From: a virus
Lineage: Duplodnaviria > Caudoviricetes
DNA length: 64,000 nucleotides
Virus record (IMG/VR): IMGVR_UViG_3300049580_000022
Span: 2,017 to 66,016 of that record
Direction: 5' to 3' (one strand)
The notes beneath the pieces are model-generated. The model made no database searches, was not told the origin of the DNA, and was given only the letters and a program-made list of their open reading frames with translations. Of this stretch, positions 2,442 to 25,195 are shown one piece after another. Both the position numbers and the translations under genes were made by a program. The first letter of the stretch is position 1, and each line of letters opens with the position of its first letter.

Positions 2442-3056
2442 TCAAATGCTGTTGCTGTGATCCTGGAATTTTCCGACTTCATTTCCATAGCTATCCCATC
2501 CCTTGCGCGCGTTTCGCGCAAACATTTCCAAATAAGGTCCATCTGCCAGGCGCTCGATGCGCCCATATACGCAGTCCGGTTTTCGGCTGTGCTGGCGCGC
2601 CGGTTCTATGATGCCCATGCGAACGCCAGCATCGTTGCGCTTGGGCTTCCCGCGCGTGGCAAGCAAGCACGGTTCGGTGTTGCTCCGTGTCCAGAAGCCA
2701 AGTTTCATATCGGCTTTGATGGAGTCGTCAAACATGTCCATCTGCATTCCGTTCGCCTTCATCCAATCGAAGCCGGCCGTCTTGTATGTGAAGCCATAAG
2801 CCTCAATACATTCAAGCGCGCGCGGAAGCATCGGCCACGTTGCCCACATCAAAAGGATGCAATCCTTCGCGGCGATGTCCGCGATGGGAAGCGCACACAG
2901 GTCTTCATGCGATAGTGTCTTGTAATGCTTTGTGGCGTTGCGATTGAGGGGCGCATCCGGCGCAGCCTCTTTCCACGGTCGCCAATGCCATGGGAAGTCT
3001 GCGTAGATGACGCGGTAATGGTTGCGCGGTATCGCAGCCAGTTCGGTATAGATCAT
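2442..3056 (-). CDS. MT-A70-family N6-adenine methyltransferase
   Basis: YRVIYADFPW, HYKTLSHEDLCALPIADIAAKDCILLMWAT, GFWTRSNTEPCLLATRGKP, HSRKPD, YLEMFAR..W..YGNE. Start chosen at the ATGA overlap at 3053-3056. Confidence 0.88.
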   Translation of the reverse strand: MIYTELAAIPRNHYRVIYADFPWHWRPWKEAAPDAPLNRNATKHYKTLSHEDLCALPIADIAAKDCILLMWATWPMLPRALECIEAYGFTYKTAGFDWMKANGMQMDMFDDSIKADMKLGFWTRSNTEPCLLATRGKPKRNDAGVRMGIIEPARQHSRKPDCVYGRIERLADGPYLEMFARNARKGWDSYGNEVGKFQDHSNSI

Positions 3057-3295
3057 AGACGCGAGAGCCAGATAAGCGCGTGACTGTCCATGATCTTCCC
3101 CCGTTCGTTCGGATGCTTCTTGACGAAATGATCCGCGCCATTGCGCAAAACCACGTAGCCGCGTTTGCGCAAGGTCATGATGGCCGCATAAACGGTTTTC
3201 CGTTCTGGGTATTTCGAGGGCGATTGCGTCTCGTTGAGCGGCAGACGATCCTGTCTCACAGCAATTTCTCTTGCAGGAATTGGCTGTGTCCCCAC
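3053..3295 (-). CDS. Hypothetical basic protein
   Basis: Its stop overlaps the MT-A70 start (ATGA). GTG start inferred. Confidence 0.5.
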   Translation of the reverse strand: MGTQPIPAREIAVRQDRLPLNETQSPSKYPERKTVYAAIMTLRKRGYVVLRNGADHFVKKHPNERGKIMDSHALIWLSRL

Positions 3296-3768
3296 ACAAG
3301 GATGCACGCGGCTTCGGCGGCGTTATGATCCGTGATGGTCCAGCCCTGCATGGCGCAATAGCGTAGCGCGTGGGCCTTTGGATTTGCCACGCGGCCATCG
3401 CCAAATAAGGCCTTGCGCCACGACTGCGGAGCAACCAGCAACACCTTCTTGGCGCCGCCCTCGATCGCTGCGCCTTGGGCAGCACCGGAAAGCATGACAA
3501 GCGAGCGGTCGCCGTGGGAGCTTGTCTGCACCCATGAGCCATCTTTGCGCTTGCGTTGAATGCCCATGAGAGCGCTTTCCATCACAACAACATCAACGCC
3601 GTTGGCCTTCACGAAGGCGCGCACATTGCCTGCGATGCTGGCGAGTGAGCGAGGCCGCTCTTGATCGCTAAACCCTTTGAGCTTCCATGTGCCCGACAAT
3701 GGGCGTCCGGTTCTTTCACCGAACGCCCATCCGGTCACATTGGCGAGGTCCAATGCGAGACACTTCAC
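3256..3768 (-). CDS. RuvC-like Holliday junction resolvase
   Basis: CLALDLANVTGWA (first acidic residue), VVVMES, VAPQSWRKALFG, DHNAAEAACI. Confidence 0.8.
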   Translation of the reverse strand: MKCLALDLANVTGWAFGERTGRPLSGTWKLKGFSDQERPRSLASIAGNVRAFVKANGVDVVVMESALMGIQRKRKDGSWVQTSSHGDRSLVMLSGAAQGAAIEGGAKKVLLVAPQSWRKALFGDGRVANPKAHALRYCAMQGWTITDHNAAEAACILVWGHSQFLQEKLL

Positions 3769-3771
3769 GGA

Positions 3772-4368
3772 TTATTCCTCTTCTTCGTGTTCGTCGTCTT
3801 CGTGCCAATCACCGTCACCATCGCTGGTGTCGGTGCCCTTCATCACCATGTCTTTCTGGCCCGCGTTCCAGCCACGCATGTATTCGTCGTAGCCTTTCGT
3901 GCCTTCGCCCCAGCGTTTGAGGTTGGCATTGCGACCGTTCTTGCCGTCGCCATAGCCTTCCGCATAAGCCTGCTCTTCGACCGTGCCATACTTGGCTTCG
4001 TAAAGGTCGATCTGCACCGGCAAGCCGCGCAGCTTGGCGAGTCTGCGCATCTCCATAAGCTGCGCAGCCAAGTCTTCGGGGTCGAGCCGTTCCAGCTTCA
4101 TGGTTTCCGTGAAGGCTTGGACGTTCATGCCCATTTCCTTCATCTTCTTCTTGTGATCGCCCACCTTCCCGGAGGCCGACCGCGCTTTCGCCATGAGATG
4201 CAGGAGCGTTTCATAGGCGAATGTTGCGTCTTTGTCGGATGGCAAATTGCTCAGCAACAATTGAGCGCCATGCGATGTCTCAACGGCTTCTTCCTTCGTG
4301 GGCTTCGCGGCGCGGCGTCCCCTTGCGGCTGGCTTCTTCTTGCCAGCAACTTTTCTTCCTTTCGGCAT
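3772..4368 (-). CDS. GapR/DUF2312-like nucleoid protein with C-terminal AYxEGY...YMRGW motif
   Basis: Basic N-terminal tail; KKKMKEMGMNVQAFTETMKLERLDPEDLAAQL resembles the UPF0335 core; AYAEGYGDG...YMRGWNAGQ. Confidence 0.5.
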   Translation of the reverse strand: MPKGRKVAGKKKPAARGRRAAKPTKEEAVETSHGAQLLLSNLPSDKDATFAYETLLHLMAKARSASGKVGDHKKKMKEMGMNVQAFTETMKLERLDPEDLAAQLMEMRRLAKLRGLPVQIDLYEAKYGTVEEQAYAEGYGDGKNGRNANLKRWGEGTKGYDEYMRGWNAGQKDMVMKGTDTSDGDGDWHEDDEHEEEE

Positions 4369-4918: not shown

Positions 4919-6202
4919 ATGAAGCATCTGGTTCTTGTCGATGCCAGCGGCTTCGCGCACAGGGCATTTCACGCGCTTCCCGCCACATACCGCGCCAAGG
5001 ATGGCTTCCCCACATGGGCAATCCTTGGGTTCATGGACATGGTGTGGAAGATGTTGGGGCGCTTGCAGGCCGACCCGGCGGATTATGGCGCAGCGGTATT
5101 TGACTTTCCGGGCAAGAACTTCCGGCACAAGCTGTTCCCCGAATACAAAGCCAACCGCGCCGCCGGCCGTTCGGAAGAATTGAACGTCCAGCTTCCGGTG
5201 ATGCGCCACGCCGCAGAAGCCTTGGGGCTGTGTCCTATCGAGGCAGAGGGCTACGAGGCGGACGATCTGATTGCGTCTCTGTGCGCTTGGGCGAGAGCGC
5301 AGAACATTCGGACCACCATTGTTTCCTCAGACAAAGACTTCGGCCAGTTGGTGGAGGATGGCTGGGTTGAGATAGCCGACCCCATGAGTCGCAAGCGCGT
5401 GGGTGAGGCGGAAATCAAAGAGCGCTGGGGGGTGAAGCCAAAATTCGTGCCGGAAGTGCAAGCCTTCATGGGTGATTCCGTCGATAACATTCCGGGCATT
5501 CCGGGATGCGGGGACAAGAAAGCCTCGCTGTTGATCCGCCGTTTCAATTCCATCGAAGGGGTGTTGGAAAACCTGAACCTCATTCGCTGGCCTGCGATTG
5601 AGCGGGAGTTGCGCAAGAAGGGCGCGCGCAAGCGGTTGGAGCTTTACCGCGATCTGGCAACGCTGCGGAGCGATGTGGAAATTCCCGTGACGCTGGAAGA
5701 GTTGACGCTCAGCCCAACGCAGCCCTCGCATGTCAAGGAAATCCTGCGTTTCCTGGATGCCGCGCACAAATACGAAGCGATGTTCGGACAGTCCACGGAT
5801 TATGATTTGGTGGCCGACAAGGTGCCAAACCCAAAGCAATGGTGGCGCGATGCCGTTGCGGGGAAGATCGCGCACCTGAATGACACGCCGCTTGTCCCAC
5901 AGGTGGGGTTCTATCAGCGCCGCCTTGTGCGTGGCGGTCCATGGGTGCCGTGCCGTATCTGGCGCGATCCGCAGATGGACTTTGAAACCGAACGCCCCAC
6001 GGGCCGGGACATCATCCGTTGCGAGGTCAACGGCAAGATCGCAAGCCCGGTGCGAGAATGGGACATCCTCTCCCGCTATCCCATCAAGGAAGAGCTATAC
6101 GATTACATGGTGGCGAATGCCGCGTGGGCAAAGCAGCATTCTCCCAACGAAGCGATTGCCCGGCCAACCGAACCGATTAACTGGCTTACCGAACCAGTTT
6201 AA
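4919..6202 (+). CDS. PolA-type 5'-3' exonuclease/flap endonuclease with extra C-terminal domain
   Basis: LVLVDASGFAHRAFHA, FRHKLFPEYKANR, GYEADDLIASL, IVSSDKDFGQL, GDSVDNIPGIPGCG. The last ~130 aa (PQVGFYQRRLVRGGPWVP...) are a different domain. Confidence 0.9.
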   Translation: MKHLVLVDASGFAHRAFHALPATYRAKDGFPTWAILGFMDMVWKMLGRLQADPADYGAAVFDFPGKNFRHKLFPEYKANRAAGRSEELNVQLPVMRHAAEALGLCPIEAEGYEADDLIASLCAWARAQNIRTTIVSSDKDFGQLVEDGWVEIADPMSRKRVGEAEIKERWGVKPKFVPEVQAFMGDSVDNIPGIPGCGDKKASLLIRRFNSIEGVLENLNLIRWPAIERELRKKGARKRLELYRDLATLRSDVEIPVTLEELTLSPTQPSHVKEILRFLDAAHKYEAMFGQSTDYDLVADKVPNPKQWWRDAVAGKIAHLNDTPLVPQVGFYQRRLVRGGPWVPCRIWRDPQMDFETERPTGRDIIRCEVNGKIASPVREWDILSRYPIKEELYDYMVANAAWAKQHSPNEAIARPTEPINWLTEPV

Positions 6203-6210
6203 CCAACCAC

Positions 6211-6222
6211 GAAAGACGAAAG
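6211..6222 (+). promoter_or_regulatory. GAAAGACGAAAG leader motif, copy 1
   Basis: Exact 12-mer, 11 nt before ATG 6234. Confidence 0.65.
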
Positions 6223-6233
6223 AAAGAAGACCC

Positions 6234-7415
6234 ATGACAGACGAAACCTCAGCCCCTATTGGGCACAACTCGCAAGAGACGCTTCCTACCGTCGATGCGC
6301 TCATTGACGATCTGACCGAGCGCAACAAAGATGCGCTTGAACATGTGGATGCGCTGCTGGAACGCGGCCAAGAATTTCTCGTTATCGAGAACGATGAACA
6401 GGATGCGCAAGCCACCGAGTTCATGGTGAAGGTGCGCGCCCGCTGGAAGGCCAGCGAGGCCGAGCGTGTGGCGGAGAAAGCGCCTTACGATGATCGCGCG
6501 GGTGCCATCCATGCGTTCTTCAAGACCCGCATTCTGGACCTCATTGGATTGGCGCCGGCGAACAAGGATGAATCGTTCGATCCGACACAGCGCGCGGACC
6601 TTGGTATCGGCCCGCGGGTGAACATGGCGCAGACGATCTACAAGCGCCGCAAGGTCGAAGAGGAACGCAAGCGCCGCGAAGAAGAGGCGCGCAAGCTCCG
6701 GGAGGCCGAGGAAGCCGCGCGCCGGGCGCGGGAGGTGGAAGCCCAACGCCAGCGTGAGGAAGAGGAACGGGCGCGCAGGGCCCGTGAGGAAGCCGAGCGC
6801 AAGGCCCGTGAAGAGGCCGAGCGCGCCAAGCGGGAGGCGGATGCCGCAGCGGCCAAAGCCCGTCAGGAGGCCGAGGAAGCCGCCGCAGCCGCAGCCCGCA
6901 AGCGGAACGCCTCCGCCAAGGCCGAAGCCGAAAAGGCCGCTCAGGAGGTCCGCAAGGCCGCTCAGGAGCGCGAGGAAGCCGCCCGGAAGGAAGCCGAGCG
7001 GCTGGCGCAAGAAGAGGCTGAGCGCCGCCGCAAGGCCGCTGTGGCGGAAGCGGAAGCCCAGGCACGGGAAGAAGAGCGCCAACGCAAGGCCCGTGAGGAA
7101 GAGAACCGGCTGGCCGAAGAGCGCGCCAAGGCCGAAGCGGCTGCGGCTGCGACTGCGGCGGAGATGTCCCGCAACCGCGGGCAGAAAGGTGGTGTGTCCA
7201 GCCTGCGCACCCGCGTCACCTTCCGGGACGTGGATCGTGAAAAGCTCGATTACGCCAAACTTGGCCCATATTTCAAAGACGATCACATCAAGGTCGCGCT
7301 CAACGCCTTCAAGGATGCCAACAAGGCGACGGTCCAGAATGGCATCAAGACCGGCAACCAGCCGATTGATGGGGTGATCTTCTACGAAGACACCGTGAAC
7401 AGTGGGAGGGCGTGA
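6234..7415 (+). CDS. Phage recombination-module coiled-coil protein (PIGHN N-terminus) with long E/R/K/A helix
   Basis: MTDETSAPIGHNS...ERVAEKAPY; ~150 aa of EEAERKAREEA-type repeats; C-terminal SSLRT...IDGVIFYED. Confidence 0.75.
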   Translation: MTDETSAPIGHNSQETLPTVDALIDDLTERNKDALEHVDALLERGQEFLVIENDEQDAQATEFMVKVRARWKASEAERVAEKAPYDDRAGAIHAFFKTRILDLIGLAPANKDESFDPTQRADLGIGPRVNMAQTIYKRRKVEEERKRREEEARKLREAEEAARRAREVEAQRQREEEERARRAREEAERKAREEAERAKREADAAAAKARQEAEEAAAAAARKRNASAKAEAEKAAQEVRKAAQEREEAARKEAERLAQEEAERRRKAAVAEAEAQAREEERQRKAREEENRLAEERAKAEAAAAATAAEMSRNRGQKGGVSSLRTRVTFRDVDREKLDYAKLGPYFKDDHIKVALNAFKDANKATVQNGIKTGNQPIDGVIFYEDTVNSGRA

Positions 7416-14515: not shown

Positions 14516-17500
14516 TCACGCGGCCTTCAAAAGCCGGTCTTGTAAGTCTGGCCGCAAGGGATAGCGCGCCTCACGCAAAAGCGCAGCCGTCTCAGGCTGG
14601 CCCGCGTCGGTCGCGGCCTGAATGGCATCCTCCCGGCTCCATGTCGCCCCGGAGGCCGCGTAGCGGGTCAGGTTGCCCGTTTGGAGCGCGGCCTTGAGGT
14701 TGGGTGCCGGAAGGGCCGAACGCTGATCCTGAGCCTGCGCTGGGGCTGTGGCAGGCTTCGGCGTGGGCGTCTGCCCCGGCTCAAGCCCCTTCTCAATGTA
14801 GAGCTTGTTGAAGCCGGAGATGATCCGGTCGGAGGCCGCGTTAAACCGGTCGAGGCTCTGCTGGTAGCTATCCTTGGAGATTTCGTTGCGGTCGTAGCGC
14901 AGGCGGATGGCCGCCTTGTCCTTGTTGATCTTCGACAACATCGTGCGCGCCCGGTTGGCGACGTTCGACAGGGACAGGAGCGTTTGCTCCTGCTTCACGA
15001 ATGCGCGCGCGCCTTCGGGATCGCGGTTCTTCCGATAGGCTTTCAGGTAGGCAAGCTGCTGATCCACCTCTTGCGCGCGGTCATAGAAAAGAGAGCGGTC
15101 GATGGACTTGCTGGGGGCGCCCACAAGACGCCGGGCGAACGGCACATCGTTCCATGTGAATTCTGCCGCCGGGTCGGTCATCTTTTGCCACAGGTCGGCA
15201 TTGCGCAGATAGAAGCTGCCCGCCGCGCCCGTCGCCTGTCCGAACATATATTCGAGGACTTCGGGAGATACATCGATCGCGCCGGGACGCACTTCATCGC
15301 CACCGCTGATCTTGTTGAGGAAGTCCGTCACGTCTTTGGCGACCGGCGACACGCTATTCCAATAGCGCTGATTTTGCGGAACCTCCGGGCCGAATTGCTT
15401 TTGATCCGGCATGATGGGCCGGTCGGCATAATCGCGGTTGCGCACAAGGTCCACGATGGGATCGGCCACCGTGGGCGCGAGGAAGTTCAAGATGCTGCCC
15501 GTGCCGCCCACCGGATTGAAGGCGTCCACCGTGGAGGAAACGAGGCTGGACATAACGTCCGAGAACCGCTTGCCGCGGTAAAGCTCCACACCCGAACGGC
15601 CCACATTGAAGAAGGTGCCGTATCCGTATGGCAATGGGATTTTGAAGAACGCGCCCTTATCGGAGGTCGGGTCCATGATGATGAGGTTATGGTTTTTGTC
15701 ATAGTCGCTGATCTTGTCGTAGAAAAGCTGGCCGTCCTTGTCCTTCTGGCTGCTCATGCTGTTCATCACTTCGAGCGCCGCGCCCGTCGCCACCGCGCCA
15801 TACATGAGCTTGCGCACCGCCGGAGAGCGAAGCGCGTGAAGCATCGTCGCGGTGCCCTGCATACTGGCGTTGAAGAACATGTAAAAGCTGTTCATCAACG
15901 GGCCGTAGGTGCCGCGGCGATTGAAGTTGATGGTGAGATTTTTGGCGAGGCTCGCGGCCCGCGCCGGCGACAATCCGGCCTCGCGCGCGTTCTTGTAAGC
16001 CGCCAAGCGGATGCCGTTTTCCACGCCGTTGTTCACACGCTCCACGGTCTGGAAGACGGCCTTGATGGCCTTGCGCGCGCTCGCGCCCGGCTTTGCATCA
16101 CGGAACGCCGTCTCTAGACGATGGCGCTGCGAGGCGATGTCATCCATGCGATTGAAATACACCCGGCCACCGTTGGCACGGAACTCATGCGCGTATTCGC
16201 TCCACTTGCCTTTGTCGTGTCCGAACTCATGTTGCAATGAGGCTTTGAGCGCAGGCAGATAATCGCGCAGCACGCCGCGGCGCAGACCCTTGAGGCCATG
16301 CTGGCCGAGATTGAAGGTCGCCTCCTGCAAATCGCGGAATGCGTTGCTGATGACAAACTCCGGGTTAAAGGAGGTGTTCACCGTCGAGAGGAAGCGCGTG
16401 ATGGAACCAGCGAAGCGCACCACGAAACGCAATTGATCCTCGTCCAGAGAACGCATGGAACGCGCCAGCCGCACCGCCGCCGGATTATGACGGCTCATGG
16501 TGACGCGATGCTCTTGCCCGTCGATCTTGGCCGAGACGGTATAATCCTTGTCTTCCGCCAAAAGCTTGTCGGTGGTTTCTGTCCGCACCTCTCCTGTGCG
16601 CTTGTCGAAGACGCGGCGCTTGGAGAGCTTGTTGACCTTCCAGAAATCCGGCTCCTTCGCACCTTCGGCCAACTTCACGAATGCCTGAGCGACACGGTTT
16701 TTCTCACCGCGCAGGATGGCTTCCTCAGCCTGCATGATGACGTAGGGCAGAATATCGCGCGCCTTGGTGCGGCGCCCGAAGGCCATTTGGCTTTCCTTGC
16801 CGCGGATGTTGATGCCCTGCCCCGTGCGCGGACGTTCCGCGCCAAGCTCCGGGTCGGCCATCGGATCGCCACGGAGCGGAACATAGTTCTTGTAGGTCGC
16901 GCGCCATTTGTCGGCGTCGGCCCGCGAGAGAAGCCCGGAGTCCACACGCTCCTTCATCGCGAAGTCCAGGATGTCATCTACTTGCTTGGCGAGAGCTTGA
17001 AGCTGGTCGAGCTTCCCGGATTGCTTCGCTGCGTCCATGATCGTGGCGGCTTCCGCGTCCGTCATGCCGGAGCCTGCGCCCTCTTCCTTGAGCATGTCGC
17101 CACGAAACTCGGGATTGATCTTGGCAATGCGCGCGTTGCGCTCCGGCGCATGGCGGGCATAGAGGAAGGCTTCCAGTTCCGGGACCGTCACGCCCGCTTG
17201 GTGCATTCCCTCCACAAGCGGACGCACCATGTTTTCGCTTAAGTCTTCAAGCTTCGCGCCCTTGCGACCGGTGGAAAGCTCTTCGGTCAGATAAGGATTT
17301 TCGTCTTCCGCGAGCTTGCGGCGGAATTGGGTTTCGATGGCGTTCTGCACGCGCAAGAGGGGCAAGAATTTATCTTGCAACGCCGTGCGCCAGCGGTCAG
17401 TGGTTTCCTGAATGACTGCCGGGGACGCACCCATCTTGAGGCGATCCATCAGGGACAGATTATGCGCGGCCAGAACTTCGCCTAACGAAGGGTCGGGCGC

Positions 17501-19240
17501 GCTGCTGAGTTTGTCGAAAAGGTTTTCTTTGCGCTGGCGCTCTTGCTCCTGCGCCATGCGGTCGAATGGTTGACTGTCTTCGGCTAGTCCGGGATGTCCG
17601 CCAAGATTGCGTTGGCCTTCCGGCGCGCCTCTTTCACTTCCGGCCTCGCCGGCAACCCGTTCAGGCTTGCCAAGAAGTCGCTCACTTCCTTCTTCGAGGC
17701 GAAGGGGCTGGGCTGATCTATCAGGAGCAGCGGCGTATTCGATCCCGAGTTCTTGGGCTTGCTTGCGGGCATTGTCGGTGGCCTTTCCAATGAGCATGTC
17801 CAGACGGCTTTTCAGTTCGCCCGGAAGCTCCGCATTGCTGACGTAGTGGAGGATGCCCGCCCGATCAAGGGCGGTGTTGACCATGTGCGCCCACCAGCGG
17901 TTCGCCATCTGACGGCTGATCGTGCCTGCGTTAACCAGCTTTTTCAGCCGATTATAGAGCGCGTTTTCCGCGCTGGTGATGATGGAATTGAGCTTCATGT
18001 CGCGCCCAAAGAGGCGCGTTTCGGCGTGCAGGCTGGCGGAGGTTTCCGGTGTGAGGGATGCGCCGTAATAATCGCCATTGTGCGCGTAAGCGAAGATCGC
18101 CTTCATGCCGGGATAACGGAACGCGCGAAGATCGCCCGGCGACAATGAAGAGCTTGAGGGATGATTGTGATGCACAACCATCTCTGCGCCCGGCTTGGAC
18201 ATGGACGCAGCCATCTCCGGCGTGATGTCCACGGTATTTGCGGCGCCCACCGTTCCAGCATGGACGGTTTCACCCGTCGCATGATCGCGCATGATGAGGC
18301 TTTCGGTGCCGGTGTCTTTGCCTCGATCGACAAGGTAGGAGCGCAGTTCTTCCGGGCCGGAGCGTGGCGGAATGCGCTTATCGACTTCCGCCGTCAGGTC
18401 TTTGTATTCGCCTTTGGGCGGCGCGGTGACAAAGCTTCTGGAAAGCGGCTCCTTGTTCTCGAACAACGGCTGGCCTTGCATGACGCTCTCGCGCATCGCT
18501 GGGGTGATGTCGATGGAGTGCCCTTCGCGATTAATGGCCTCAAGAACAGCGGAGCGACTTGGAAATGTGGCGCTTGACGCAACTTCGTTATTGGAGCGGT
18601 TGCGAAACGACCATGTGCCATCAGACCTTTCGTATGGCTCCCATAGAGATTCATTGCCACTGATCTTTGTGTTTTCAACCTTCGCACCCCATTTCTTCGC
18701 ATACTTGTTTACGAATTGCGGGAGAATGCGGTCATAGAAGCCACGCATCCCTTCGCCGCCGACTTTCAGGTCCAATCCTTTCAGCGCGCGCCAATCGCGA
18801 TAACCACCCTCGTTGACGCGCTCGCCTTCGTCGGCTTCGATCTTCTTTGCGATGTCTTTCCCAAATAGGTCTTCCACGCGCTTAAGGTCGATATCGTCTT
18901 CTTCGATAACGCGACGGTTTCCCTTGTCGTATGCGTGAACCTCAAACCTTCCTTCGCCCGCAGGCTCGTATTCGATGCGATCAAGATGATTGCCAAGGTC
19001 GTAACGCGCAGTCTGCGTCTCGCCCGTATCCCACGACAGCTTGTCATAACCATGCTCTGCCGCGTAACGCAGCATTCGTTTCATCGCCAGTTCATGCCAT
19101 GTCGATTTGAAAGGCGCGGTAGGCACGAAATTTCCGCCGACATATTTCGTGAATAAGTCGCGGTCCTTCAGCAGGAGTTCTTTGAACTCATCATGGGAAT
19201 AGGTCTTGCCGTCGATGGTATATGTGCAGTTAGGCCCCAT
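14516..19240 (-). CDS. Large polyvalent/DNA-ejection protein part B (JAB-like + LPD38-like)
   Basis: N-terminal VPTAPFKSTWHELAMKRMLRYAAEHGYD; HHNHPSSSSLSPGD; C-terminal FNRRG...FYMFFNASMQG...KIPLPYGY. Confidence 0.85.
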   Translation of the reverse strand: MGPNCTYTIDGKTYSHDEFKELLLKDRDLFTKYVGGNFVPTAPFKSTWHELAMKRMLRYAAEHGYDKLSWDTGETQTARYDLGNHLDRIEYEPAGEGRFEVHAYDKGNRRVIEEDDIDLKRVEDLFGKDIAKKIEADEGERVNEGGYRDWRALKGLDLKVGGEGMRGFYDRILPQFVNKYAKKWGAKVENTKISGNESLWEPYERSDGTWSFRNRSNNEVASSATFPSRSAVLEAINREGHSIDITPAMRESVMQGQPLFENKEPLSRSFVTAPPKGEYKDLTAEVDKRIPPRSGPEELRSYLVDRGKDTGTESLIMRDHATGETVHAGTVGAANTVDITPEMAASMSKPGAEMVVHHNHPSSSSLSPGDLRAFRYPGMKAIFAYAHNGDYYGASLTPETSASLHAETRLFGRDMKLNSIITSAENALYNRLKKLVNAGTISRQMANRWWAHMVNTALDRAGILHYVSNAELPGELKSRLDMLIGKATDNARKQAQELGIEYAAAPDRSAQPLRLEEGSERLLGKPERVAGEAGSERGAPEGQRNLGGHPGLAEDSQPFDRMAQEQERQRKENLFDKLSSAPDPSLGEVLAAHNLSLMDRLKMGASPAVIQETTDRWRTALQDKFLPLLRVQNAIETQFRRKLAEDENPYLTEELSTGRKGAKLEDLSENMVRPLVEGMHQAGVTVPELEAFLYARHAPERNARIAKINPEFRGDMLKEEGAGSGMTDAEAATIMDAAKQSGKLDQLQALAKQVDDILDFAMKERVDSGLLSRADADKWRATYKNYVPLRGDPMADPELGAERPRTGQGINIRGKESQMAFGRRTKARDILPYVIMQAEEAILRGEKNRVAQAFVKLAEGAKEPDFWKVNKLSKRRVFDKRTGEVRTETTDKLLAEDKDYTVSAKIDGQEHRVTMSRHNPAAVRLARSMRSLDEDQLRFVVRFAGSITRFLSTVNTSFNPEFVISNAFRDLQEATFNLGQHGLKGLRRGVLRDYLPALKASLQHEFGHDKGKWSEYAHEFRANGGRVYFNRMDDIASQRHRLETAFRDAKPGASARKAIKAVFQTVERVNNGVENGIRLAAYKNAREAGLSPARAASLAKNLTINFNRRGTYGPLMNSFYMFFNASMQGTATMLHALRSPAVRKLMYGAVATGAALEVMNSMSSQKDKDGQLFYDKISDYDKNHNLIIMDPTSDKGAFFKIPLPYGYGTFFNVGRSGVELYRGKRFSDVMSSLVSSTVDAFNPVGGTGSILNFLAPTVADPIVDLVRNRDYADRPIMPDQKQFGPEVPQNQRYWNSVSPVAKDVTDFLNKISGGDEVRPGAIDVSPEVLEYMFGQATGAAGSFYLRNADLWQKMTDPAAEFTWNDVPFARRLVGAPSKSIDRSLFYDRAQEVDQQLAYLKAYRKNRDPEGARAFVKQEQTLLSLSNVANRARTMLSKINKDKAAIRLRYDRNEISKDSYQQSLDRFNAASDRIISGFNKLYIEKGLEPGQTPTPKPATAPAQAQDQRSALPAPNLKAALQTGNLTRYAASGATWSREDAIQAATDAGQPETAALLREARYPLRPDLQDRLLKAA

Positions 19241-19898
19241 GGATGAGCCTCAGAGTCGTGCGGTTTTTCCGATTTCCCGTAAGCATCCCGTGAAGATTCT
19301 GGACCGTCATCCCCTCGGCAACGGCGGCTGCGGTAATGCTTGGATAGCGGATGCCATTGGCGGCATCGACCACGAACCGGCTTCGATGGTGGGCATCGCC
19401 CGTTTTTCCATACATTGGGTTAAGCGAACCGACCTTCGCCTTTGCGATCCGATCTTTCCACCAGGCAGGCAATTTATCGCCACGTTTGACCACTCCGCCA
19501 TTGCCGCCATTCTTGCGGGCTGCGCGAATTGATGCCACCCAGGCCGCTGACCGCTTTCTTTTGGCGTTCTCGCTGCGCTTGATCCGTTCCGCTTGGGAAA
19601 AGACGCCATTCCTCCGTCCATCGCCGCCATCGGTCGCGTTGACCAAATTATCGCGACCCCGCTCCAAAATGCGGGCGATCTCAAATTGGCAGGCGTCATC
19701 GTCTGTTTGGAAATGGGCGATGATATCTACTCGGTATCCATGTGCGGCCATCGCTTTCCAGCGGCGATTACTCCGGTTTTTAGTGTTGGCGCGCTCATAA
19801 AGCGGCTTCCGATTTTTCCGGAATGCACCCTTGCCGACATAAAACACCTCATCGGTGTCCAGCCGCACATGCTCATAAACATAGTGCCGCCAAATCAC
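19230..19898 (-). mobile_element. Free-standing GIY-YIG-type homing endonuclease with NUMOD3/NUMOD1-like tail
   Basis: YVYEH...VFYVGKG...R...E...LVNATDGGDG; KAKVGSLNPMYGK; YPSITAAA. Overlaps both neighbours (GTGA; 11 nt). Confidence 0.8.
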
Positions 19899-22800
19899 TT
19901 GCAGACCTCCGTGAGTAGGCCATCTTTTTTCATACGGTCGATAGCGGATGCCAGCTTATCATCGGTCAAGGCTTCTCGCATCCTCCGATGTGATTGCAAC
20001 CAATCACTCTGCACTTCCGCGATGTGAAGGATTTTCTCACCATTCGGCCCTGTGCGGTCATCGAAGCGCACATGCGCGAGGATGTTGGGCTCGTCGAAGT
20101 GGCTGGATTTGAAAGGCTGGTATTTGGAGCTTGCTTCCTGGCGCGCGTTTCTCGCGGCATTGAGTGCGTCCCTAGCCTCGTCGAAGGCCGTGATGATCTC
20201 CGGGTGCTGGTCGAGCGTGCCAGCTTCGCGGGCGTCCTGCATTTTATATGAGGCCGTGCGGAAGCGATCATTGGCCAAATCTTGTGCATGTTCCAACGCA
20301 TCAAGTTTTGCGCTGCCATCGTCGGCCTTCGTCAGAAGCAGCTCGCGGTAGTTCTCGCCACCGGGGAGCGTGTATTCGCCGTACTTTCCCCGGGTGTCGG
20401 ACGACAACCAAGGATTCGGCTGGTCGTCGAGCACCTCCCGCGCCTTATCCATTTCAGTGGCTTCGGCATCCGAAAGTGGGGTCTTTTCCGACTTGTCGCT
20501 CAGTTGCTGGAATCGTTCACGCGCGGCTGCGATCGCAGGCGGCTCCGTCGGGGCGCCGTGCTGGACCTCCTGCACGCGCACTTCATTCTCGCGCAGATGT
20601 TGGAGCACCGCGTCTTTCGTGACCGGCCCGGCCTGGGTGGCGAGCCAGTCCTTCACGCCGCTCCAATTTATCTCTTCGGCCTTCACACCTTTGGAGCGCA
20701 GATTGTCGATGATGCCTGCCCATTGTGCGGACGGCGCTTTCTCCTGCTTGAATCCTTCGATGGCGCGTGTGAGCGCGGAATAGAACGGCGGTTCTTCGCG
20801 TTTCGAGAACGGCTCGTTCTCTTCATAGAATGCAGCCGGTTTCTGGCCGCTAAAAGATAGCTCGCCTTCATCGTTGTAATGCGCGGCCTTCAACAGGCGC
20901 GCGGCATCGTGGAAGTCATGTGCGCCCGGAGCGATGTTGATATTCACGGACGCTTTGCCGTGGATGACATGACCGACGCTTGATGTGTTTGGGTGATCGG
21001 AGATGCGAACGCCAACGGAAATATCCTCTGGCGTTTCACCATCTTCATCCGTGACGCCGCGCCGTTTCAAATCCGCGACTTCTTCCGGCGTGAGCTTGCG
21101 CGTTGCCATGAGATAGCGGTCGCCTTGGCCGCGCGTCGAGCGATCTACTTTCCAGCCACGGCCTTCCGCCATTGTGCGGAATGCTTGCGCGGCGGCATAT
21201 TCCGCGCCGGATGTCTGTGTCTCAAGCCCGCGCATGACATGATCGAGTGTATCGGCGGGGAGCAAGCCGCCCTCGTCTTCAACGGATTGGCGTTCAAACT
21301 CTTCGCGCGTGGGAGCTTTGTCAGGTGACAGATGTTCTATGCTGTTTTCGTCGGTCATAATCTCGACCGCGTGCCCATGCTTTTCGAGAACATCGCGAAG
21401 ATCGGGCGGCCAATCTTCCTTGTCCGATCCGAAGACATCTTCGGCATCCTTGGGCGTCATCACTTGATAGTGACGTTTCTCGCCCGCGAATTGATTGTAT
21501 TGGTCGCGCACCGAAGGCAGTTCGGCATTGTAGGCCGAAACCATGCGGCCTTCTTCATCGCGCCCGATGTCGCCACGTTCTTCTTGGGCGCGCTGCGGTG
21601 TTACTTCTGGTTCTTGAACGCCTTTTGCGCGTAGGCGTTCGCTTCGCGCCTCGCCTGCCTTAGCGATTGCAGTTCGGAGGGCGTCAGCATCCCGGAAGTT
21701 GGCGAGGTAGTGCGCTTCATCGGCTGTGAGAGCGCCGGGTTCGATCCCAAGTTTGTTGCGGACTTCATCGCCAAAGCGCTCTCCTGCGATCCTCACATGC
21801 GGAGGATGAGGGGCGAATTTACCCGTGCGGCTCGCATTTGCAAGCGTTACCACGCCCGCGACTTCACCGCCATTGCTGCGGATGTGATTTGCCAAGTCCG
21901 CTAGCGAGCCGCCCATAACGGTTGTATCGTCCACCAGCACATAGCGGCGCCCAGCCTCTACCGGGCCGTCGAAGCTCGCCCGCGAGGCCATGCGCTCCAT
22001 GGGACCGGCACCCGTATGGTAGGCGCGGTTTGATTGCATGATGCCGGTGTCCGCAGTCGCGCCGGTCTTGGCCGCATAGTAATCCGCGAGCATGGATGGG
22101 ATTTGGTTACGGCCAGTCATTTCCTCAGCCATGACCGGCACATACGTCACGTCCGTTCCAAAGCGGCGCTTGGCTTGCGTGACCGTTTCCGGCTTTACCA
22201 TCTGCTGGACGAAGCGAGCCGCCGCCGCCGGATCGCCAGCCTTGGCGGCTTTGTAATCGGGATGCTCCTTGAGGATGGCCGGATCGTTATAAGAATGGAT
22301 CGGCTGGCTGGCGGCTTTGGGAATGCCAAATTTCCGGGGCGCGAAAGCATTCTCGTCTTCCTCGAAGCCGGGCAGTTTTGCTTCTTCCTCCGGCTTCTCC
22401 GCGAACATGCCGCCAGCTTCGCGCTGTTCGGCGCGTGGTGTCACACGTCCGCGGCCTGCACTTTCGCGCGCTTGTGCAAGCTGACGGGCGGAACCTTCCG
22501 CGCCGGGAATTACAGTTTGGGGGAGTCCTTCGGCGCCGGCTTCTTCGCTTGGTGCGCGTGGACCTTCTTCAACAGGTCCGCCGTTCTCAGGGCGCGCTCC
22601 CGCGTTTGCGGTTTCAGCTTCGGATGCGCGGCCATCTTCTCCAACTGCGCGGCCATTTTCTGCCGGTTCATCATACGGGATTTCGGCATAGTGGTTCTCG
22701 CCAGTCTCTTGCGCGCCTTCGTCCGCCAAGCGCATGGCATCGCGTTCGGCATATTCCGCAACGGCATTCTCGGCGTCAAGCTGCGGGTTCTCTGCCATCA

Positions 22801-25195
22801 TGCCAAGGATTTCGTGCTGCTGATCCGGCGTGAAGTCGTAATTCAAGGCTTTGCCATGTTCGGCAATGTCCGCCATGGCGGCGGCATTCTGCTCTTCCGC
22901 CCGCGCGCCGCCCTGCGCTTCTCGGACAGCCGCTTCGCCTTCCGGCGCATAGACTTTGTTGCGGCCCGCGGTGCGTTCCAGCAATTGCAAGACATCGTTT
23001 TCGGTCGGGCGCGGCGTGTGGTCGGGAGGTCCGAAGAAACCGTTTTCCCACAAAAGCTCGCCCGCGCTGTCGATCGAGCGCCCGGTGGGCCGGATCAATG
23101 GCCCGGCGCCCGGCACCATCTGTTGCAGCCCGCGGCCGGCGCGTAAGTCGTGGCCCTCATCGTCCCGGATGCCGCCGTTCTTCGCCAGCAGCCGGGCAGC
23201 ATCGAGCGGCCCTGTAAGAACCGGCGCGCGCCGCAGCACACCGTTGCTCCCCACCGTAACGCCGCTGTCTTTCTGAGCCGCGGTCGCCGCCAGAACGCGG
23301 GCCGCTTGGTCGGCGGAGATGCCAAGATCGTTGCCGACCGCAGCCGGGGTGAGAGGCTTCTTGGTGTCGCGGATGCGCGCCAGCACCGCCGGAACGTGGG
23401 CCTGCGGGTCAAACTCCGGTGGGGTGTTAATTTTTTCGACCCTATCGGATGGGGAAAAACTAGAAGTATTTTCGATCGCCGGGCGCACCTCTTGGGGCCG
23501 CGGCGGCTCAAGGTCGATGATTTTCTGCATTCGCGCGCGCATCTCGCGCAGCGCGGTGTTGCCCTTGGGACGCTGGCCGGTCGCCGGGTCGATATTGGTT
23601 TCGAGCGCCTGGGCAGCGGCGTCGGGGGTGATTTCCTCCGGGGCATTTGCAGGTGCAGGCGCGGGAGTTTCCTGTGCAGCAACAGGCTCTTGGCTCGGCG
23701 GAGGGGTGATTTCCTCCGGGGCCGCCGGTGCGCCGCGCGTTCCCTGCGCGTCGGAAGGGAGGCTTTGCGCGTTCTCTGCGGCGGAGAGCGGCGTCTCTGG
23801 CACCGGTGGCGTGCCGGGCGCACCTATCGGCAGCACGGACCCATCCTGCGCCTCCCAGCCCACCTGGGCGTTTGTGTCAGGGTCGAATACCGGCTCGAAG
23901 GCTGGCGCGGGTGTTTCATGTGAAACATCGCCAGCGGGCTTAGGAGCGGGCTGGGCAGGCGTTTCCGGTTGGGGCTGTGTGGGAGCGGCTTCGGGCTGGG
24001 TGCCCTGCGGAGCCTCCGCTGTGGGCGCTGTGACGGGTTTCCTCGCGATGGCGCGCGCGCCGCCCTTGACGGCCAGATGGCCGATGGCCGGAACGAGGGT
24101 GCCAGCCACGCCGCCAGCCGCCGCCTGCCCGATGCCTTCGCTTGCTGGGCGTCCCGCGGCCACGTTCTGCAAAGCTTGGCCGCCAGCCATGACGCTGGGC
24201 TGGATCGCGAAGGCTTGGAGCATGAGCTTCTTAACGGCGCTGTTGCGGAAAACCGGAAGGCCGAACGCCGCCACGCTCGCAGCGGATATGCCTGCATCCT
24301 GGGCCGTCTTTTTCAGAGCGCGGTCATAGGCGCCATCCGGGTCTTTCGGCGTGGCCTTCAGTTCCTGCGCAAGGTTCGGGCCGAAGACCTGAAGGGCGGT
24401 TCCCGCCGCGCCGCCAGCCGCCATGCCGCCAAATTCGCCCACGCCGGTTTCACCCAAGACGGGGATGGCGCTTCCGGCGATGCCGCCTGCAATCGTGCCC
24501 GCCAACATCGGCGCGGACTTGCCGAAGCCATAGGCGGTTTTTGACAGGGCGTTGAGCGGATGAAGAAGGTCCGACCACTCGTAGCCTTGGGCCGCGGGAT
24601 TGGCTTCGTCGGCGCTGCCGCCTCCCACGCCAAAGGTCTGGCCTACATCTTTGCCGCCGGCGACGATGCCTTGAACGAGAGCGGACAGCGGGTTCGGCAT
24701 CGCTGGAGCCGCAGGAGCGGGAGGCGTCTTTGGAATCAGGTCAGCAAAGACGTTCCCTTGCGCGGGGAGCGCGCCGCCCTGCGAGCCGTTTGGAATTAGG
24801 TCTTCAAAGGCATTCCCTCCGGGGAGCGCCGCGGGGGCGCTGGGTGTCTTCGGACCAAACCCCCAATGGATGTGATCGCCTGTTGAATGAGGATCGCCTG
24901 CCCGCTCATGCAGCCATTCGGTCGTGGGATAGCCTGCCGCGCGCGCCGCTTCCTGGATTTGCGCGCCGGTCACGCCCGCGGGCGGCACAAAGTCCACGGC
25001 TTCTCCTTCGCCGCGCGTGTGGAGGGAATGCGCCGCACCGCCGATGGCCGCGTTATGATCCGGCGTCCGATACCCGCTGGTGATGCGCGTGCCGGGGAAA
25101 GCAGTCGTGAGGAATTGTTGGACGTTATCCTCACTCGGAAGCGCGCCACCGCTCGTTCCGTCCGTGGGAACGAGGTCATCAAATGCTCCGGCCAT
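19895..25195 (-). CDS. Large polyvalent/DNA-ejection protein part A (M15 peptidase, PRTase-like and other domains)
   Basis: TSGYRTPDHNAAIGGAAHSLHT...AVDF...HIH; VLVDDTTVMGGSL; PFYSALTRAI...TLPGGENYRELLL...HFDEPNILAHVRF...AEVQSDW. Confidence 0.85.
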   Translation of the reverse strand: MAGAFDDLVPTDGTSGGALPSEDNVQQFLTTAFPGTRITSGYRTPDHNAAIGGAAHSLHTRGEGEAVDFVPPAGVTGAQIQEAARAAGYPTTEWLHERAGDPHSTGDHIHWGFGPKTPSAPAALPGGNAFEDLIPNGSQGGALPAQGNVFADLIPKTPPAPAAPAMPNPLSALVQGIVAGGKDVGQTFGVGGGSADEANPAAQGYEWSDLLHPLNALSKTAYGFGKSAPMLAGTIAGGIAGSAIPVLGETGVGEFGGMAAGGAAGTALQVFGPNLAQELKATPKDPDGAYDRALKKTAQDAGISAASVAAFGLPVFRNSAVKKLMLQAFAIQPSVMAGGQALQNVAAGRPASEGIGQAAAGGVAGTLVPAIGHLAVKGGARAIARKPVTAPTAEAPQGTQPEAAPTQPQPETPAQPAPKPAGDVSHETPAPAFEPVFDPDTNAQVGWEAQDGSVLPIGAPGTPPVPETPLSAAENAQSLPSDAQGTRGAPAAPEEITPPPSQEPVAAQETPAPAPANAPEEITPDAAAQALETNIDPATGQRPKGNTALREMRARMQKIIDLEPPRPQEVRPAIENTSSFSPSDRVEKINTPPEFDPQAHVPAVLARIRDTKKPLTPAAVGNDLGISADQAARVLAATAAQKDSGVTVGSNGVLRRAPVLTGPLDAARLLAKNGGIRDDEGHDLRAGRGLQQMVPGAGPLIRPTGRSIDSAGELLWENGFFGPPDHTPRPTENDVLQLLERTAGRNKVYAPEGEAAVREAQGGARAEEQNAAAMADIAEHGKALNYDFTPDQQHEILGMMAENPQLDAENAVAEYAERDAMRLADEGAQETGENHYAEIPYDEPAENGRAVGEDGRASEAETANAGARPENGGPVEEGPRAPSEEAGAEGLPQTVIPGAEGSARQLAQARESAGRGRVTPRAEQREAGGMFAEKPEEEAKLPGFEEDENAFAPRKFGIPKAASQPIHSYNDPAILKEHPDYKAAKAGDPAAAARFVQQMVKPETVTQAKRRFGTDVTYVPVMAEEMTGRNQIPSMLADYYAAKTGATADTGIMQSNRAYHTGAGPMERMASRASFDGPVEAGRRYVLVDDTTVMGGSLADLANHIRSNGGEVAGVVTLANASRTGKFAPHPPHVRIAGERFGDEVRNKLGIEPGALTADEAHYLANFRDADALRTAIAKAGEARSERLRAKGVQEPEVTPQRAQEERGDIGRDEEGRMVSAYNAELPSVRDQYNQFAGEKRHYQVMTPKDAEDVFGSDKEDWPPDLRDVLEKHGHAVEIMTDENSIEHLSPDKAPTREEFERQSVEDEGGLLPADTLDHVMRGLETQTSGAEYAAAQAFRTMAEGRGWKVDRSTRGQGDRYLMATRKLTPEEVADLKRRGVTDEDGETPEDISVGVRISDHPNTSSVGHVIHGKASVNINIAPGAHDFHDAARLLKAAHYNDEGELSFSGQKPAAFYEENEPFSKREEPPFYSALTRAIEGFKQEKAPSAQWAGIIDNLRSKGVKAEEINWSGVKDWLATQAGPVTKDAVLQHLRENEVRVQEVQHGAPTEPPAIAAARERFQQLSDKSEKTPLSDAEATEMDKAREVLDDQPNPWLSSDTRGKYGEYTLPGGENYRELLLTKADDGSAKLDALEHAQDLANDRFRTASYKMQDAREAGTLDQHPEIITAFDEARDALNAARNARQEASSKYQPFKSSHFDEPNILAHVRFDDRTGPNGEKILHIAEVQSDWLQSHRRMREALTDDKLASAIDRMKKDGLLTEVCK

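Follow-up and report, generated by a model that had tools for sequence, protein, structure and literature searches.

The stretch of Caudoviricetes DNA analysed here, hereafter the window, comprises 64,000 nucleotides (nt) of IMG/VR virus record IMGVR_UViG_3300049580_000022 (positions 2,017 to 66,016), a record of 66,016 bp with direct terminal repeats that the window covers almost entirely. On its minus strand the window codes for a giant polyvalent protein in two pieces, part A and part B, with a gene for a predicted homing endonuclease of the GIY-YIG type lying between them. We propose, with a probability of about 0.65, that a mobile cassette has inserted itself into a GNAT-like domain of this protein, within a variable surface insert, and that the two halves of the domain reassemble non-covalently, docked by two short peptides that the cassette itself brings along. 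The cassette would consist of the endonuclease gene, an upstream stretch coding for about 30 residues with a cysteine at their end (the tail, which closes part A), and a downstream stretch coding for about 38 residues with a cysteine at their start (the head, which opens part B).

Anatomy of the interrupted gene

The three open reading frames (ORFs) leave no non-coding bases among them (Table 1). Part A ends in ...EVCK followed by TGA, and this stop shares a 4-nt overlap, GTGA, with the start of the endonuclease; the TAA end of the endonuclease in turn overlaps by 11 nt (19230-19240) with the ATG of part B, whose N-terminus reads MGPNC. The 654 nt from the part A stop to the part B ATG belong entirely to the endonuclease ORF, which is in a different frame from A and B, while A and B themselves share one frame at a distance of 657 nt, as would happen by chance in one case out of three. 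On re-reading, the coordinates, overlaps, termini and GAGG site that a first-pass annotation had given for the three ORFs all proved correct. The endonuclease gene is single-copy in the viral record, and no minus-strand promoter or terminator was found between or near the three genes. Since the tail would supply both the stop of part A and the ribosome-binding site of the endonuclease, and the 3' end of the endonuclease would supply the ribosome-binding site and the ATG for part B, all three proteins could be made separately from one transcript.

Table 1. Features of the split locus, with window coordinates, and other junctions at which the tail/head pair occurs, with its position in the protein
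Feature	Position	Strand	Details
Part A, ORF of the giant polyvalent protein	19895..25195	minus	1766 amino acids (aa); first half of the split domain at the C-terminus
GIY-YIG homing endonuclease gene (predicted), free-standing	19230..19898	minus	222 aa; GTG start; I-TevI-like DNA-binding C-terminal part
Part B ORF	14516..19240	minus	1574 aa; LPD38 at residues 1174-1369
N-terminal half of the split GNAT-like domain	19988..20797	minus	matched by tblastn in about 90 unsplit loci
C-terminal half of the split domain	18431..19126	minus	from the VPxAPF..W helix onward
Cassette tail	19898..19987	minus	final 30 residues of part A, ending ...VCK
Cassette head	19127..19240	minus	initial 38 residues of part B, beginning MGPNC...
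Ribosome-binding site GGAGG	19906..19910	minus	7 nt ahead of the endonuclease GTG, within tail codons; read directly
Ribosome-binding site GAGG	19248..19251	minus	7 nt ahead of the part B ATG, within the endonuclease ORF; read directly
Junction in L070	after QSDF		endonuclease between
Junction in L101 (same place as L183 junction j2)	after QSDF		endonuclease between
Junction in L102	after QGDW		endonuclease between
Junction in L100	about 25 residues further upstream, in the hairpin ahead of the QSD strand		endonuclease between
Junction in L186	ahead of the FKSSHFDE motif		endonuclease between
L183 junction j1	about 100 residues upstream of the domain		only 36 nt between ORFs, no endonuclease
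Junctions in L078 and L055	elsewhere in the protein		ferritin-like gene between, no endonuclease

In its unsplit relatives the interrupted domain is continuous. The last 300 residues of part A and the first 300 of part B match adjacent parts of single annotated coding sequences in three GenBank phages, and a tblastn search found both halves in one frame, with no stop at the junction, in about 90 related viral or metagenomic loci; stops or frameshifts occur only in L030, L039 and L064, and all of these are further downstream. The first-pass annotation had taken the motifs E(I/V)QSDW and PxAPF..W for halves of one domain and had named in advance a comparison of A plus B with unsplit homologues as the way to check this, and the continuity of the relatives across the junction bears it out. 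In the window the E-x-QSDW motif is carried by the final strand and helix of the N-terminal half-domain. For L005, the nearest unsplit relative, an AlphaFold model (alignment A6) shows one compact unit (pLDDT 86.8, pTM 0.79), and all of the top 50 matches in a structure search with this model are GNAT folds, with the matches spanning both halves. The matches are moderate (Z 9.2-6.4 over 112-152 residues; Foldseek E 0.014), and on the strength of this model we call the domain GNAT-like with moderate confidence; no Pfam family was found for it, even in stand-alone unsplit proteins.

The spacing between E-x-QSDW and PxAPF..W ranges from 0 to 228 residues among the relatives, and these intervening residues are mutually unalignable. 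The cut therefore falls in a hypervariable insert between the two most conserved stretches of the domain. The earlier claim that the break lies inside one domain is upheld to this extent, but the break is in a hypervariable surface insert rather than in the conserved core. Every insertion site of the tail/head pair described below likewise maps to loops or variable inserts of the L005 model. Two unsplit loci have features of their own in this domain. In L046 (4747-5432), an in-frame insert of 228 residues lies exactly at the site of the window's cut. In Dolichospermum phage Dfl-JY45 (L001), the first half of the domain matches twice within a single 2387-aa protein (3001-3798 and 5800-6636), so that the domain, or its N-terminal half, is duplicated there.

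The middle ORF matches PHROG 314, 'homing endonuclease' (E 1e-12), and its residues Y6, Y8, Y20, R36, E73 and N87, which follow a Tyr/Tyr/Arg/Glu/Asn pattern, are invariant in 62 endonuclease relatives. An AF2 model of the protein (pLDDT 86) superposes on the catalytic domain of I-TevI (1LN0; TM 0.69, rmsd 2.9) and also matches the GIY-YIG domains of UvrC and PD-T4-3. The DNA-binding domain of I-TevI (1I3J) is found both by the model (Foldseek probability 0.91) and by a profile of 12 endonuclease relatives (E 0.005). For the window's endonuclease the Pfam GIY-YIG family is below threshold and NUMOD3 and NUMOD1 are weak, NUMOD3 reaching 3e-9 in the relative from L183, and a phmmer search against PDB sequences found nothing. 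The modelled fold nonetheless identifies the middle ORF, as the first-pass annotation had it, as a free-standing homing endonuclease of the GIY-YIG/I-TevI-like type, which would presumably cleave DNA. It belongs to a large family, with 671 proteins at E 1e-20 or better; 80 other relatives in viral contigs lie between unrelated genes and are without tail or head.

The tail and head peptides

In alignments with unsplit relatives, the final 30 or so residues of part A and the initial 38 or so of part B have no counterpart, and profiles of the tail, the head and the fused module find no match in the unsplit loci. A homologous tail/head pair is present at nine junctions with DNA context, the window included, and its members occur at ten further protein ends. 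In five other phage contigs (L070, L100, L101/L183, L102 and L186) the pair flanks related endonucleases. Within the domain it occupies four positions: after QSDW, in the hairpin before QSDW, before FKSSHFDE, and after the helix that follows PxAPF, the last being a further site at which the tail was found in P0265.

All tails consist of a helix, a glycine and a short strand, with a cysteine at most two residues from the end. All heads start with a methionine, one to three further residues and a cysteine, followed by a Tyr-rich hairpin with a glycine turn and by a helix (alignments A7 and A8); for the head of part B a beta-hairpin plus helix is predicted. Both cysteines are present at 9/9 junctions, and the asparagine that precedes the head cysteine in the window is not conserved. 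The pair is conserved at the protein level between GC-rich and AT-rich phages, the endonucleases there being only 26-41% identical.

A profile search of database proteins added eight new heads, each exactly at an N-terminus and with PxAPF about 38 residues later, and one new tail, exactly at a C-terminus after QSDW (P0312). Among the 119 best relatives of the part B start, eight begin with the head. With the fused tail-head profile, no uninterrupted module was detected in the loci or in the retrieved proteins, and scans of viral contigs with head and tail patterns returned only loci already known. An apparent internal tail in P0200 proved to be an FtsK-gamma winged helix, unrelated to the pair. 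Judged by these alignments and profiles, tail and head are a recognisable conserved sequence family, and they belong to the mobile cassette and not to the host domain. The Cys-bearing docking peptides envisaged by the first-pass annotation can accordingly be retained as peptides conserved at nine junctions and ten further protein ends and absent from unsplit relatives, with the correction that they appear as parts of the cassette and not of the host domain.

The pair is also present at junctions without an endonuclease (Table 1). At L183 junction j1 the 36-nt spacer weakly resembles the two ends of the neighbouring endonuclease gene, a resemblance in AT-rich DNA on which we do not rely. In L078 (932-1420) and L055 (6494-6988), a ferritin-like gene (Pfam Ferritin, E 6e-20 and 8e-15, respectively) lies between the Cys-tail and Cys-head fragments, so the junction can host cargo besides the endonuclease. 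A third junction in the 120-kb phage L183 (17440-17600) has an ...IPDCV end, 113 nt and an MAKC start, with cysteines at both ends and peptides that are otherwise different. Similar C-termini with a cysteine, such as ...SIVCKT and ...SLEC, are found in several database relatives.

Mobility, docking and alternative explanations

We built a tree of the domain, without tail and head, from six split and 43 unsplit genes. The split genes are scattered among the unsplit ones, and no fewer than five gains or losses are required by well-supported branches; the window has the unsplit L005 as its sister, and L102 and L186 likewise have unsplit sisters. The database endonuclease closest to that of the window, P0084, is 76% identical to it. 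The head of P0127 is 82% identical to the window's head and the rest of that protein about 20%, the pairing of P0084 with P0127 being based only on the same recorded longest contig, of 53,100 nt. Such a gradient of identity is what homing produces when flanks are co-converted into a diverged allele. Taken together, the scatter of split genes, the identity gradient and the presence of the pair at several sites lead us to a mobile cassette that carries putative docking peptides. The support for homing by the endonuclease itself is indirect, coming from the patchy distribution on the tree and from the identity gradient; the enzyme would cut cassette-free alleles, whereupon the whole unit would be copied in, flanks included. 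The same phage is present at low depth in further rhizosphere metagenomes, where DNA contigs from four runs show the endonuclease-bearing form. None of these contigs has a joint that leaves out the endonuclease, which does not argue against the existence of a cassette-free allele; no RNA run containing the region was found.

Once translated, parts A and B would each fold and would reassemble non-covalently into the complete domain. Tail and head most likely pair with one another and hold the cut ends together, since they are situated at the cut, are conserved at the protein level in GC-rich as well as AT-rich phages, and persist where the endonuclease has been lost. In the arrangement that we envisage, the tail, a helix and one strand, would pair at the cut with the hairpin and helix of the head, strand against hairpin, and the two cysteines would end up adjacent. 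A bolder extension of this proposal, which we consider doubtful though not far-fetched, is that the Cys tail and Cys head form a self-sufficient portable connector, able to rejoin a protein cut in any surface loop and perhaps fastened, once in the virion or periplasm, by a clasp made of a disulfide or a metal bridge. If true, selfish genes would have, alongside introns and inteins, a third natural means of neutralising their insertion, and the peptides would provide a ready-made small tag pair for splitting proteins.

A number of points weigh against a mobile cassette with docking peptides. First, the GC content of the cassette barely differs from that of its flanks. Second, no near-identical cassette-free allele was found among the related loci or the rhizosphere contigs, so the exact borders of the inserted DNA are undefined. 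Third, tail and head show no consistent opposite charge, and the sole invariant residue of the domain to have been lost is a glycine just past QSDW, where the tail begins. Fourth, the support for docking of A to B by the two peptides is comparative and drawn from sequence. Finally, in Aeromonas phage Aeh1, where mobE lies between nrdA-a and nrdA-b, the tails are dispensable for heterodimer formation and are needed at a later assembly step (PMC3045599). Tails that are not needed for fragment binding in Aeh1 may therefore have another role here too.

The likeliest alternative, improbable as we hold it to be, is that tail and head are passive hitch-hikers. They would be the flanks of the first allele to be invaded, co-converted at each homing event and with no docking role, and A and B would reassemble simply as halves of one domain, much as the Aeh1 heterodimer formed with no need of tails. 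Co-conversion of flanks is normal for homing, and the gradient of identity to P0127 is as it would give. Furthermore, an element of hairpin plus helix that resembles the head is found in many unsplit inserts at the same site, and the head may thus have originated from a native insert. However, the pair is kept at the protein level between GC-rich and AT-rich phages despite the divergence of their endonucleases, and at no fewer than four unrelated positions, whose flanks share no homology that could drive co-conversion. It is kept even where the endonuclease is gone or has been swapped for a ferritin-like gene, and neither cysteine is missing from any of the nine junctions. We therefore continue to favour docking by tail and head.

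It is a good deal less probable that the split has inactivated the domain, with A and B acting independently through their other domains while the half-domains decay. Polyvalent proteins are modular, the domain is without a known function, and an invariant glycine beside the cut has indeed been lost. Against this, the two halves in the window retain 26 of the 27 invariant columns of the domain family and 38 of the 45 nearly invariant ones, on which grounds the split domain appears to be selected rather than decaying. Split forms also recur in many lineages, as the eight heads among the 119 best relatives of the part B start attest, and they retain the motifs of both halves.

Restoration of a single chain by RNA splicing, protein splicing or ribosomal bypass over the endonuclease gene is least credible of all: A and B do share a frame, the Cys that ends A and the Asn-Cys near the start of B do recall intein junction residues, and endonuclease genes are frequently found in introns or inteins (PMC2677866), but the interval between A and B is wholly taken up by an ORF in another frame, and each of the two downstream ORFs is preceded by a ribosome-binding site of its own. 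Family searches of A and B gave no Hint or intein match. A split intein would need more than the 30 aa of the tail and the 38 aa of the head, the cysteines of both stand at the wrong ends, and the asparagine is not conserved. No group I intron or other structured intron RNA was detected around the ORF, a search of 18700-20500 against Rfam at E up to 10 giving chance-level hits only; with no room between the ORFs either, the earlier remark that intron-like flanks are lacking holds. Ribosomal bypass had been considered for the matching Cys codons on both sides and was rejected for the window, 657 nt being, to our knowledge, far beyond any known bypass.

The polyvalent protein and known systems

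Part A has an N-terminal peptidase M15 domain (Peptidase_M15_3), and part B matches LPD38 at 1e-40 and has long matches to phage polyvalent-protein families. A PHROG search of the polyvalent protein matched phrog_14770 at 1e-170, BFVD structure matches of the split domain are uncharacterised polyvalent proteins, and the neighbouring gene upstream codes for a DNA ejection protein. Because of the M15, LPD38 and polyvalent-family matches, together with the ejection-protein neighbour, A/B is by homology a giant polyvalent protein of the internal-virion or ejection module. The protein is probably packaged in the virion and ejected, its delivery into the host being suggested by what is known of the polyvalent family (PMC5512222). 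The survey of polyvalent proteins in question (Iyer et al. 2017, PMC5512222) makes no mention of endonucleases, inteins or splits. In P0329 and P0340, which are related polyvalent proteins, there is a hit to the LAGLIDADG_3 family (PF14528), which suggests inteins or endonuclease domains elsewhere in the polyvalent family.

Two other regions of the protein may be noted. Residues 954-1188 of part A (window 21632-22336) are conserved, with a match to phrog_22413 at E 1e-56; an earlier reading of this region as a phosphoribosyltransferase is in line with a Pfam hit, though one that is sub-threshold (E 0.0034). A candidate JAB/RadC-type motif, HxH...S..D, is present in part B (window 18050-18320) and in the upstream fragment of L070 (L070:3-90). 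Annotators should regard parts A and B as a single functional protein and the 222-aa ORF as a mobile element, and insertions of this kind offer a possible explanation for giant phage polyvalent proteins that are encoded in several pieces.

The endonuclease resembles I-TevI and the T4 Seg enzymes in its layout, with an N-terminal GIY-YIG domain and a C-terminal NUMOD3/helix-turn-helix part, and it is free-standing like Seg, though sequence similarity to these enzymes is low. Seg genes sit between genes, whereas the window's endonuclease sits inside a domain. A T4 gene 39/mobA/gene 60 cassette with a 50-nt bypass element was reportedly described by Bonocora et al. in 2011 (see also bioRxiv 10.1101/2022.08.31.505936). 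There, as proposed here, an endonuclease travels as a cassette together with a device that offsets the harm done by its insertion. The parallel is one of logic only, since the T4 device is an RNA and nascent-peptide signal by which the ribosome hops 50 nt, whereas the device in the window would be a pair of peptides on two proteins.

In a split intein, the N-intein, of about 100 aa, starts with Cys or Ser, and the C-intein ends in His-Asn before a Cys, Ser or Thr. The tail of 30 aa has its cysteine at the end and the head of 38 aa has its cysteine at the start. This distinguishes the window from the fractured genes, known mainly from phages, in which a host N-part with an add-on, an endonuclease, and an add-on with the host C-part follow one another (2009, PMC2677866). 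The three-gene layout is the same, and in both cases the add-ons travel with the endonuclease. Fractured genes, however, have split inteins as their add-ons, about 100 and about 40 residues long, and these join the host parts into one chain by splicing, while the window's add-ons match no Hint family and have cysteines opposite to the ends that an intein requires.

Friedrich et al. are said to have described nrdA of Aeromonas phage Aeh1 in 2007 as 'genes in pieces', and the nrdA/mobE precedent invoked by the first-pass annotation is an apt one. In Aeh1 as in the window, a free-standing homing endonuclease gene interrupts another gene within a single fold, at a point between neighbouring strands; the 3' end of the endonuclease gene runs into the downstream fragment; and the fragments bear C- and N-terminal extensions, which unsplit relatives lack and which appear to have arrived with the endonuclease. 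No splicing takes place in Aeh1, and in the window no intron model or intein family was matched. The enzymes differ, mobE being of the HNH type and the window's endonuclease of the GIY-YIG type. The tails borne by mobE are essential for activity of the split reductase (Crona et al. 2011, PMC3045599), and the same authors predicted further cases, considering such tails likely to be common yet too variable to find by similarity (PMC3045599).

Tail function has been demonstrated biochemically in Aeh1, whereas in the window it is read from sequence. On the other hand, the tails of Aeh1 are known from one case only and carry opposite charges, while those described here make up a conserved family with a cysteine at each cut end, and, unlike the Aeh1 tails, they occur at several sites in many phages and persist without the endonuclease. 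Full-text literature searches found no description of this tail/head pair. With a recognisable family to hand, the general idea of endonuclease-borne tails becomes testable, and a natural pair of peptides of some 30 residues might serve to assemble split proteins. The cassette is a recurring, portable variant of a mechanism known from the single case of Aeh1.

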